Source: a virus (taxonomy: Duplodnaviria; Heunggongvirae; Uroviricota; Caudoviricetes). Taken from it: DNA of 44,997 nt. Shown in pieces: positions 3,001 through 6,000 of this stretch. The stretch spans positions 1 to 44,997 of IMG/VR virus record IMGVR_UViG_2917408641_000002. One strand, 5' to 3'. The position numbers were made by a program. Position 1 is the first letter of the stretch. Each line of letters starts with the position of its first letter.

Positions 3001-6000
3001 TTGTAGGCCACGCCGATGTGATAGCCGATGGTTGTACCGTCACTCATCTGGAAACTGAATGGTTCATCGTAGGTCTTCATTTGCTTGAAGGTAGGGAAGA
3101 TGTAAACCTCAGTATTCCAGCCAGTCCAGTAGCGACCAACACCGACCACCTCACCGACGCCTTTGTCGTCGCCCAGTTTATTTACCTTGATGCCAACATT
3201 ACCTGGTTCAACGCGATCGCACCCGACAAGGCTAATGGTCGGCAGAACAATGGCTAAAGCAAAAATAATTTTTTTCATCTTTTATCCTTAGTGAAAGAAA
3301 GACCCTTGTAAATGGCATAAATGCAGGGCGGGGTCAGAAACGCCAGTGCAAAGCCAGAAATAACTGCTATCGTATCCTTCATGGATATAAGGAACGGAAC
3401 GAGTAATCCGTAAATGCATGCGATAATTGCCAGTAAAATTACTATTGTGAAATACAGTCTCATTGGTCTGTGGTATCCCGATATTTTTAACCGACTGACA
3501 GCGCAATAAAGAGAATAATGATTTCAGTTAGTGTCAGCACTGTGGCAAGGATTAAAATCAGTTTTACTCTGTTTAATTCACGGTTGCTTTTCATATAAAC
3601 GGTTAGTAAAAAACGGAAGAATTATATTCTTCTTAATATTTAATGTGTCACTGGCGCTTCTGGCATACCATGAGTATTCAGATCGTGAATCATTTCATCC
3701 AGAAGGAGTTCAAGCCCTTCGCGCCCCATAGCAGAAACAATGAAACCATTATCAGGATCTGCGATGAGCATATTTTGATAGAGAAACAGAACTCGCCCCA
3801 TGCCTTCAGCTTCGCCATATTTTTCAATAAACCCCCATTCGACATGGTTTTGCAGGGCAATGCGAAGTGGCCCGGGGTAGATACTCAGGCAACCATGTTT
3901 CCCCTTGTAAATAACTGCGCGATCTGTAGTTCCGTTATCGTTAGGGATATCAATGGTGCCGTTCTTATACTCCTCTTCATTAATAAATACCGTTACATAC
4001 AGCCAGCGCCACTGTGCAACCTTCATATCGATAGAACAGTTTTCTAAAATCCCGGACTCATCGGCTTCTGCTAGGCACTGGAGAATGCTTAAACCGCGTG
4101 AATTTGGATAATCGTATTCACCGGCATCAAGACGTCGCACAGCTTCAACATAATCAATAGTAGTGTCACCAATCTTTATTCCATGCGTTGTTACTTCAGG
4201 TTTGAATTCTGAATTTTTCATAAAGTCTGTTCCGCTTGTTTATTTGCAGGTGGAATAATCGTGTAACCAGCCCTTTCCGCCATCCACAAAAAAGTGTCCA
4301 TACTGCCAACGAATTCATCGTCTAACAGATGCTTTGAATAAGTGACCTTGCCGTTTTCGATGGTGAGGAAGAGTCTAACTTTTTCATGAGTTATGTTTTG
4401 CTGTTTTTCTTTCATTTATTTATCTCCCATATGCTTTGCGCAAATACAGGTTGGCTATATGAAGATAAGAATCTCCATGTTGTGCAATGAGGCAGGCAGT
4501 TTTATACGATGCCTTATGTTTCAGGAAAGTCATAACATAATCTCCTGCGAATAAAGGTTGCAACAATCCCCGGCGATAAAACCGTAATAAACATTCAGGG
4601 AATATTTATTGTTATTGCGCTAATTCTTTTTCGGCAGCAGCTTTTGCATATTCACATGCAAAATTCAGAATTTCGCTGCCAAGTGTTTTTGTTTCGTGAT
4701 TACTTGACATATGTAATGCCTGTGTTGCATGCAATAAATGATAAACATTTACCGCAAATGAGTCCGGCTCCAGACAAATGCCTTCATAATCATCTTGTTG
4801 TGAGGTTGTTTCTGTCATTGCTCCTGAAGTGCATGCGAGCCTGTTTTTGACAATTCTCTTTCCTCTAATCACTATATCGGCAACATCTATTGCCTTTACA
4901 ACCTCCGGGAGAAGTTCCGGGTTTGTATAATCAAAGTCATCAACATGGAGAACAGTTATGTTTTCGAACTTTTTCATGGCTTCCTCAGCTGACTTATATG
5001 TTCTGCTATATAGCGAGTCTCAGAAGTGTTTTCATATTGAGACTGTTTCCGCAATGATTGATAAAAATGTTCGCATGTACCTTGAGGGGCGAAGCGGCGA
5101 TTATGTCACCATTGGTATTGGTTCTTCCGTAGAAGAGCTTTGATCTTACCCACCAATAGTGGACACAGGACTAAGTGAGTAAACTCTCAACCAGAGGTGA
5201 CTCATGACAAAACCAGTATCAATCAGCAAGAAGCCCCGTAAACAACATACGCCTGAATTTCGTAACGAAGCCCTGAAACTCGCTGAACGCATCGGTGTGG
5301 CCGCCGCAGCCCGTGAACTCAGCCTGTATGAATCTCAGCTTTATGCCTGGCGCAGTAAACAGCAGCAACAAATGAGTTCGTCAGAGCGCGAAAGCGAACT
5401 GGCCGCTGAAAATGTCCGCCTTAAACGACAACTGGCGGAGCAGGCTGAGGAACTGGCCATCCTCCAAAAGGCCGCGACATACTTCGCGAAGCGCCTGAAA
5501 TGAAGTATGTCTTCATCGAAAATCATCGGGCAGAGTTCAGCATCAAAGCGATGTGTCGTGTACTTCGGGTTGCCCGCAGCGGCTGGTATGTCTGGCTCAG
5601 GCGTCGTCACCAGATGAGCCTGCGCCAACATGTTTCGGCTCACCTGCGATACCGCTGTTCATAAGGCATTCTTTGAGGCAAAGCAGCGATACGGTGCTCC
5701 CCGCCTTGCTGACGAACTGCCGGAGTTCAATATTAAAACCATTGCCGCCAGCCTGCGTCGTCAGGGGCTGCGGGCGAAAGCCGGCCGGAAGTTCAGCCCG
5801 GTCAGCTACCGTGCACATGGCCTGCCCGTATTGGAGAATCTGCTGGAGCAGGACTTCAGCGCCAGCGGCCCGAACCAGAAGTGGGCGGGTGACATCACGT
5901 ACTTGCGTACCGATGAGGGCTGGTTGTATCTCGCAGTAGTCATCGACCTGTGGTCACGCGCCGTTATTGGCTGGTCGATGTCACCGCGAATGACAGCACA

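Follow-up and report, generated by a model that had tools for sequence, protein, structure and literature searches.

The exo-xis genes of phage lambda (orf60a, orf61, orf63, orf73, and ea22) are small, non-essential genes of the early left region that are reported to modulate lysogenization and induction. In phage phiP27, the genes L06, L07, and L08 (P27p06–08 in NC_003356) are recorded as 'hypothetical, unknown', and our search of the literature on these three genes, their PHROG identifiers, and early-left accessory genes found no functional study. We analyzed the counterparts of L06–L08 in a 44,997-nt stretch of viral DNA (Caudoviricetes; IMG/VR record IMGVR_UViG_2917408641_000002, positions 1–44,997), hereafter the window, which is a phiP27-like prophage according to the gene layout read from its open reading frames (ORFs) and domains; the names L06–L10 used for genes in the window are the phiP27 names. 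It is near certain that the window carries a copy of the catalogued phiP27 L08/L07/L06 set plus a gene of 37 codons that we call s37. This block is a conserved accessory set of phiP27-like and Shiga toxin (Stx)-type lambdoid prophages with the gene order L08-s37-L07-L06. It is similar to the lambda exo-xis genes in its place between the early regulators and xis/int, in the small size of its genes, in dispensability, and in mosaic distribution; this likeness is positional only, and the block has no similarity to any solved structure or Pfam family.

All genes of the block are on the minus strand. The L08-like gene (121 aa) is at 4612–4977, s37 at 4420–4533, the L07-like gene (65 aa) at 4218–4415, and the L06-like gene (193 aa) at 3640–4221, with the L07 stop and the L06 start sharing an ATGA that makes a 4-bp overlap. 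The products of the three longer ORFs match phrog_5451 (L08, E value 1e-82), phrog_340 (L07, 1e-23), and phrog_1515 (L06, residues 1–193, 3e-90), and PHROGs 1515, 340, and 5451/4587 all carry the label 'unknown function'. A preliminary description of this DNA had listed three consecutive genes of 121, 65, and 193 aa, the last two overlapping by 4 bp, between an IS3-family insertion sequence (IS) and an SPFH gene. The three ORFs, their lengths, and the overlap were found exactly so; the grouping has to be amended in that s37 is a fourth gene and that s37, L07, and L06 form a tight group (4-nt spacing or overlap) from which L08 is separate. Their location between the IS and the SPFH gene also stands, except that a possible gene (s35), a gene for a 62-aa membrane protein, and a truncated L09 are found there as well.

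At the DNA level, window positions 3300–5150 are 91.8% identical to phiP27 and 95% identical to an Escherichia coli prophage integrated beside yecE/yecN/cmoA. Amino acid identity to the phiP27 proteins is 84% for L06, 82% for L07, and 98% for L08. DNA matches to the block are present in 367 of 5,426 complete E. coli genomes, and the block is found in many Stx1- and Stx2-converting phages, including yecE-integrated Stx1a-, Stx2a-, and Stx2d-converting ones. In order, strand, and place between the XRE regulator and the SPFH/int end, the block in phiP27, the Stx phages, ASU11, and PhiR49_2 is like that in the window; phiP27 differs by another allele of L07 and of the first third of L06, and the window copy has an IS3-family insertion upstream. 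The block is ordinary for a temperate phage, being one of very many accessory blocks without assigned function.

What is new is the fourth gene, s37, which was previously unlisted and completes the block L08-s37-L07-L06. It was recognized from its sequence, its substitution pattern, and its annotation in relatives, and encodes a basic peptide (MTFLKHKASYKTACLIAQHGDSYLHIANLYLRKAYGR). An AGGAG motif is located 8 nt upstream of its start, and its stop is 4 nt before the L07 ATG; L06 is without a strong Shine-Dalgarno sequence. The gene is annotated as a coding sequence in PhiR49_2 and in the Stx2a phage Stx2_EH2201 and is absent from the annotation of the phiP27 and strain 504838 records. The peptide has no PHROG or Pfam match.

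To assess whether the reading frames are genes, we compared them pairwise with homologous loci and calculated the ratio of non-synonymous to synonymous differences (pN/pS). This ratio is 0.13–0.29 for L06, 0.08–0.11 for L07, 0.13–0.37 for the C-terminal half of L08, and 0.20–0.23 for s37 (at 75–77% nucleotide identity). The first 55 codons of L08 are under weak constraint (0.6–0.7), and the frame is nonetheless open in diverged copies. A control ORF antisense to the block (3643–4047, plus strand) has values of 0.8–2.2 and gains stops. Dozens of protein homologs were found for each of L06, L07, and L08. L06, L07, s37, and the C-terminal half of L08 are therefore real genes under purifying selection, and the substitution pattern rules out a chance or non-coding reading of these four. 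That the ORFs are non-functional remnants or chance frames is very improbable: the weak constraint on the L08 N-terminal extension would fit such a reading, as would the IS, which may silence the block in the window's genome, but purifying selection is strong, frames stay intact across alleles that have diverged to 50% identity or less, and the antisense control behaves as non-coding sequence, unlike the genes.

The gene neighborhood was surveyed in 80 IMG/VR contigs with close L06 relatives. L07 is present in 79 of these, s37 in 78, the C-terminal half of L08 in 77, and the SPFH module in 63; the order is always L08 C-terminal half, s37, L07, L06 (77–79 of 80 loci), so that the neighborhood is conserved. 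The L08 N-terminal extension (44/80) and L09 (30/80) co-occur in a subset of contigs. In PhiR49_2 and ASU11 the block is kept and the SPFH genes are absent.

A recurrent feature is the company that L07 keeps. In all 19 loci that carry L07, the gene adjoins either L06 or a phrog_1737 gene. The L07-like gene has L06 downstream or a 119-aa paralog upstream, and most pairs abut or overlap start to stop. Citrobacter and Klebsiella loci, CharmingMan, and phi467 have the order phrog_1737 gene (119 aa), L07-like gene, small genes including a 140-aa phrog_1886 gene, L06-like gene, and a Bro-N/ORF6N 'anti-repressor' gene; Fels-1 has the pair of the 119-aa gene and L07 without L06. L06 and the 119-aa proteins are themselves related: L06 residues 69–183 are homologous to the whole of the ~119-aa phrog_1737 proteins (hhalign probability 79%, E value 1.6e-5), and L06 thus consists of an N-terminal domain joined to a C-terminal domain that also exists alone. 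The constant adjacency of L07 suggests a physical partnership of L07 with the domain shared by the L06 C-terminus and phrog_1737.

L06 has a variable N-terminal domain (residues 1–68), a conserved C-terminal domain (69–183), and a low-confidence tail, G-M-P-x-x-P-V-x-H. Residues D37, R72, W73, Y105, R120, E128, Y148, M151, G166, and H193 are nearly invariant across the family; H193 is the last residue of the protein and closes the tail. The common Stx-type allele stops earlier (...PEGQ), and hence the C-terminal tail is not universal. The protein is acidic (isoelectric point [pI] 4.7; family median 4.85). AlphaFold2 (AF2) predicts it with confidence (pLDDT 88.6, pTM 0.83) as a mixed alpha/beta fold in which three- and two-stranded sheet units alternate with helices. 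A Foldseek search with this model found no neighbor (best E value 0.16 in PDB and 0.06 in BFVD), and sequence-profile searches of PDB sequences at two depths found nothing.

An exhaustive search of 1.84 billion representatives with a hidden Markov model (HMM) of L06 retrieved 129 clusters at an E value of 1e-3 or less, 33 of them at 1e-30 or less, and nearly all are 190–220 aa long. All of 56 diverse L06 relatives match phrog_1515. Ten remote cluster members have no Pfam domain, and Pfam searches with the 56 L06 relatives and 16 L07 relatives gave no recurring family, with DUF1980_C, HTH_IclR, and DUF5375 appearing only at E values of 0.05 or greater in one to three members. In a word-indexed protein search the only named sources of L06 relatives are Escherichia and Citrobacter; tblastn extends them to Klebsiella phages, CharmingMan, AsXd-1, and some phage-plasmids. 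The Klebsiella records MN166823, MK422455, MK433579, MK416019, and MF695815 label their L06 homologs '2-polyprenylphenol hydroxylase/hydrolase related flavodoxin oxidoreductase'. This label has no support from any domain search and is therefore probably a propagated annotation error.

Genes for Bro-N, ORF6N, or 'anti-repressor' proteins adjoin L06 homologs in Citrobacter, Klebsiella P18-100, CharmingMan, phi467, and a metagenomic prophage, and none of these Bro-N/ORF6N neighbors contains an L07-like C-terminal domain, even at an E value below 5. Distant relatives of L06 are located in integrase-AlpA-Bro-N/AntA-ASH elements shortly upstream of a primase-helicase gene (P4-like satellites), and another is encoded in a prophage, with an ORF6N gene on one side and a RusA-like gene on the other. 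A metagenomic protein of 336 aa (P0124) has an L06-like part (residues 1–214) fused, by inspection, to a further domain of the kind that L06 has at its C-terminus, which makes it a Rosetta-stone-type link between L06 and its small paralogs.

Several observations on one P4-like satellite that carries an L06 homolog (L018) are recorded here in their own right. Two genes downstream of its L06 homolog, the satellite encodes a 116-aa phrog_37628 protein, which the C-terminal domain of P0124 resembles. Directly upstream of the L06 homolog, five consecutive ORFs of 59–71 aa (4854–6004, plus strand of the satellite) are predicted to encode helical hairpins; their pattern is like that of the L08 C-terminal domain, yet the match to the L08 profile is not significant (E value ~3). 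At 997–1317 (plus strand) the satellite encodes a 106-aa protein ending in DFDDDIPF. E. coli SSB has the same sequence at its C-terminal tip, and the satellite protein may therefore mimic the SSB tail.

The two smaller proteins, L07 and L08, resemble parts of phage regulators. The AF2 model of L07 (pLDDT 74) has three strands and one helix. Relatives of L07 come from Escherichia and Citrobacter, with an identical protein in Escherichia marmotae, in the word-indexed search. All 16 L07-family members match phrog_340; 12 of them also match the C-terminal ~55 positions (192–246) of phrog_4792, a family of 268 residues annotated 'anti-repressor' (best E value 7e-6), and 4 match phrog_2379. L07 may accordingly be a relative of the C-terminal domain that these annotated anti-repressors carry, although the HMM match is weak. 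No Pfam ANT, Bro-N, or KilA match was found for L07, and PDB profile searches with L07 and with L08 returned nothing. The anti-repressors of PHROGs 4792 and 2379 are of the Bro-N/KilA-N/Rha type, and the likeness to the block lies in their C-terminus, which L07 may share, and in the frequency of Bro-N/ORF6N genes as neighbors of L06 homologs; unlike them, L06, L07, and L08 have no Bro-N, KilA-N, ORF6N, or Rha DNA-binding domain by Pfam. The anti-repressor label of these two PHROGs is an annotation and not a tested function.

L08 consists of a helical domain (residues ~56–121, phrog_4587) preceded by an extension (residues 1–55) that is found in some relatives only; in RefSeq the annotated product is often one of 68 aa with its start at M54. 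The protein has a pI of 5.0 (family median 4.84), and the only named source of its relatives in the word-indexed search is Escherichia. Residues 69–115 match residues ~24–80, the N-terminal domain outside the helix-turn-helix (HTH), of the XRE regulator L10 that opens the operon in relatives (BLASTP 36% identity, E value 2e-7; tblastn 45%; HMM E value ~3e-8). The regulators concerned are those of strain 504838, PhiR49_2, ASU11, Stx phages, and phi467, and in each of these a stand-alone copy comes after the regulator gene; a Citrobacter prophage likewise has the L08 C-terminal domain on its own behind that gene. On this sequence evidence, the C-terminal half of L08 is a paralog of the N-terminal domain of the XRE regulator in related phages. 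L08 thus shares the N-terminal domain of the relatives' L10 (annotated 'DicA-like' or 'CII-like', phrog_4836) without its HTH. Pairing of L08 with the N-terminal domain of the window's own L10 was considered and dropped, as the two have no similarity. The N-terminal domain of L10 has no PDB relative. Neither L06 nor L08, both of them acidic, has a membrane segment or an enzyme signature.

The preliminary description had found no recognizable family for the three longer genes and called for profile and fold searches. These now give the same picture: for L06, L07, and L08, nothing above noise was obtained with Pfam, NCBIfam, or PADLOC (PADLOC-DB 2.0 gave no hit at an E value of 1 or less), PDB searches were empty, and the only matches are PHROG families of unknown function, none of which bears a function for any of the three. 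Homology to characterized lambdoid early-left proteins (Exo, Bet, Gam, Kil, CIII, Ral, SieB, and Ea/Orf proteins), which would have spoken against an uncharacterized system, was looked for in Pfam, NCBIfam, and PDB profile searches and not found. The suggestion of an uncharacterized accessory system therefore holds in a weak sense, that of a conserved group of genes whose products probably interact, and not beyond it.

Sequence variation within the block is concentrated in L07 and the N-terminal domain of L06. The main difference between the window and both phiP27 and strain 504838 is the interval 3961–4380, which covers L07 and the first third of L06 and has 68–82% nucleotide identity versus 93–100% in the flanks. 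Across the 80 contigs the median identity to the window is 63% for the L06 N-terminal domain, 77% for L07, 92% for the L06 C-terminal domain, 94% for the C-terminal half of L08, and 97% for s37, and the neighbors of the L06 N-terminal domain and L07 have medians of 92–98%. Median pN/pS across contigs is 0.32 for the N-terminal and 0.18 for the C-terminal domain of L06. No positive selection on either domain was detected by pairwise pN/pS (0 of 1,760 pairs exceed 1), and the pattern is best read as old alleles being exchanged, with no demonstrable diversifying selection.

The early-left reading of the block is supported by the region upstream of it. The first gene of the leftward operon is the L10-like XRE/HTH regulator (6369–6857, minus strand; Pfam HTH_3), whose match to the NCBIfam DicA-like model is below threshold (48.4 bits against a curated cut-off of 101). 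In the order of the coordinates it is followed by a cI-type repressor gene with HTH and S24 domains (6961–7617/7692, minus) and a divergent cro-like gene (7729–7956, plus). The mechanically called repressor ORF (6961–7692) has 243 aa; to judge by the phiP27 homolog and the arrangement of domains, its start is the internal ATG at 7617 (218 aa), which leaves a cI-cro control region of 111 bp. The 103-bp gap between cI and L10 (6858–6960) is a putative leftward operator and promoter region (OL/pL, minus strand) with a promoter-like site, TTGCCA-17-TACCAT (6917 to 6889), that is flanked by operator-type repeats of the form TGATAC/GTATCA. The 17-mer TTGATACTTTGGWTTCT at 6925–6941 shares 16 of 17 positions with the one at 7664–7680 in the cI-cro region, and its pattern is found at these two places only in the 45-kb window, against 0.23 expected. 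The motif WWRGTATCAWV is present four times in the window against 0.73 expected, three of the four being inside the cI-L10 gap or the cI-cro region. We regard the TGATAC/GTATCA sites as putative OL and OR (rightward) operators of the cI-type repressor. Since the repeats of the cI-cro region also surround the promoter-like site, the genes from the regulator to int would form a repressor-controlled leftward early operon, in agreement with the placement of the block in the preliminary description. A 15-nt inverted repeat (6862–6876/6892–6906) is located between the promoter-like site and the regulator ATG.

In the window this arrangement is interrupted. An IS3-family element of 1,245 bp with HTH_Tnp_1 and rve ORFs (5141–6385, plus strand) is inserted inside L09 and 10 codons short of the end of the L10 gene, with a 3-bp target duplication, CTT, at 5138–5140 and 6386–6388, as seen from the junctions relative to the uninterrupted strain 504838. 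The last 10 codons of L10 (an intact gene has 182 aa) are displaced, their remnant being at ~5106–5140. The element lies between pL/L10 and the genes from L08 downstream, and because it separates the block from pL a polar effect on L08–L06 and on xis/int is predicted to be likely. The IS thus probably uncouples the block from the putative pL in the window's prophage, and the prophage may be impaired in excision through this polar effect.

Given that L07 and L08 appear as stand-alone copies of accessory domains of phage transcription regulators, which points to regulatory protein-protein interaction rather than to the anti-restriction or kil functions suggested at first, we tentatively propose that the products of the block, small soluble proteins, may be early protein-binding modulators of regulators, with L07 bound to L06. 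In this scheme L07 and L06 would form a complex, the block products would be made early after induction or infection, and they would act by binding proteins, most likely transcription regulators that belong to the phage itself, to prophages or satellites in the same cell, or to the host. Copies consisting of a domain only might titrate or modify full-length regulators and so tune the lysis-lysogeny decision or a derepression circuit. A number of observations count against this proposal. The HMM match that links L07 to anti-repressors is weak, and the family concerned owes its name to annotation only; adjacency to Bro-N-type genes may mean little, given how common these are in early regions. 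The window's L10, like that of phiP27, has a different N-terminal domain (phrog_4739) that the L08 profile does not detect, so that the simplest pairing of L08 with L10 cannot hold here. The L06/L07 alleles are independent of the cI type (in strain 504838 the repressor is a different one and L06 is 94% identical), which argues against the phage's own repressor as the target. Synteny among close E. coli relatives may reflect common descent, and the near-invariant D, R, W, Y, E, and H residues of L06 could equally mark a catalytic site.

The same early, cI-repressed position would also suit anti-defence or host takeover, in which L08 and L06, the latter helped by L07 as a partner or adaptor, would block a host restriction or immune component, a protease, or a division protein by binding to it. 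We consider this possible but doubtful. It would better explain the spread of L06 homologs over elements that have a host in common and neither immunity nor replication modules, namely lambdoid phages, phages of the Hendrixvirinae type, and P4-like satellites (there just upstream of the primase gene), and it is consistent with the acidity of the L06 and L08 families, with the L06 N-terminal domain and L07 being the most variable parts of the region, and with the conserved surface-type residues and conserved C-terminal tail of L06. The acidic anti-restriction proteins ArdA, Ocr, and KlcA/ArdB are comparable in pI and expected early expression; there is no Pfam or PDB match to them, however, and the mixed alpha/beta fold predicted for L06 has no neighbor. 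Nor is there a match to the known anti-restriction or anti-defence families represented in Pfam or PHROGs; acidity is non-specific, the absence of pN/pS values above 1 gives no sign of positive selection, and this reading does not account for the regulator domains to which L07 and L08 are homologous. An accessory role in replication or recombination, with L06 assisting replication initiation or recombination of the mobile element, is unlikely. The L06 homologs shortly upstream of a primase-helicase gene (D5/Toprim or DUF927) in two satellite-type elements, the RusA-like resolvase encoded by the next gene in one prophage, and the lack of the usual exo/bet/gam in phiP27-type left operons would accord with such a role, but L06 is far from the replication genes in lambdoid relatives, is acidic, which is unusual for a DNA binder, and has no Pfam RecT, ERF, or Rad52 signal; single-strand annealing proteins (Rad52/Sak, RecT, and Erf) gave no fold or profile match for the block. 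We find it still more improbable that the block serves prophage defence, superinfection exclusion, or a toxin-antitoxin system in which L07 is the small partner and L06 the effector that protects the lysogen. As in type II toxin-antitoxin systems, a small gene and the larger one downstream of it overlap, here in ATGA; alleles vary between conserved flanks, the block adjoins moron-like membrane and SPFH genes, and a ParE-like gene is interposed in one Citrobacter locus. Unlike in those systems, gene order is not fixed, L07 being upstream of L06 and downstream of the 119-aa gene (Fels-1, phi467, and the Citrobacter and Klebsiella phages), no toxin or antitoxin family was found in Pfam, NCBIfam, or PADLOC, and L06 has no PDB fold neighbor. 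No promoter-like site with an operator is present directly upstream of s37 or L07, and the sole promoter-scan hit, inside L08, is no better than in shuffled sequence. The same family is found in satellites among helper-manipulation genes, and the position of the block behind an operator-flanked pL argues against its expression in the lysogen, where it should be silent. The idea that these could be defence genes, which had been raised from their position, finds no support, PADLOC having returned no hit.

One could imagine, although we think it rather unlikely, that L06 and L07, together with the 119-aa/L07 pairs, are an unrecognized two-protein early module of enterobacterial temperate phages and P4-like satellites that binds and neutralizes a conserved protein of the host or of a helper phage. 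Such a module would be a new family for anti-defence or derepression, its target specificity set by the variable L06 N-terminal domain and L07. If the products tune derepression or induction, they could influence the induction of Shiga-toxin phages and prophage cross-talk; inhibitors of a host protein, if that is what they are, would be a new family for the catalogue of anti-defence or host-takeover proteins. Two features lift the block slightly above its many counterparts, namely the L06 fold without neighbors and the recurrent pairing of L07 with the L06 C-terminal domain or the 119-aa paralog. With a confident model and no PDB or BFVD neighbor, L06 is a reasonable target for structural and interaction work.

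The genes downstream of the block lead to the integrase end of the prophage. Between L06 and the gene for the 62-aa membrane protein (3275–3463, minus strand), a possible gene of 35 codons, s35 (3487–3594, minus), would encode a strongly hydrophobic peptide (MKSNRELNRVKLILILATVLTLTEIIILFIALSVG). It is conserved at 86–100% amino acid identity in 57 of the 80 related contigs with pN/pS of 0.35–0.68, and its membership in the block is uncertain. The membrane-protein gene lies between s35 and the SPFH lipoprotein gene (2451–3278, minus); DUF4222 and DUF5406 genes (minus) are situated between the SPFH gene and the excisionase gene (1370–1606, minus), and the integrase gene is at 1–1314 (minus).

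Upstream of L08 and divergent from it, the L09-like gene (phrog_6104; 4976–5143) is on the plus strand inside the leftward operon, its ATG overlapping the L08 ATG by 2 nt. The IS cuts it from 80 to 55 codons and supplies the stop codon. An intact copy matches phrog_6104 over its full length (80/80), pN/pS against ASU11 is 0.16, and tblastn identity is 78–100% in five loci; in intact relatives the 3' end of L09 converges on the regulator gene with an overlap of ~110 nt. A second insertion element, of the IS66 family, is located in the middle of the prophage (17313–19928, minus strand) and encodes a 523-aa DDE_Tnp_IS66 transposase, a 115-aa TnpB_IS66 protein, and a 225-aa HTH protein.

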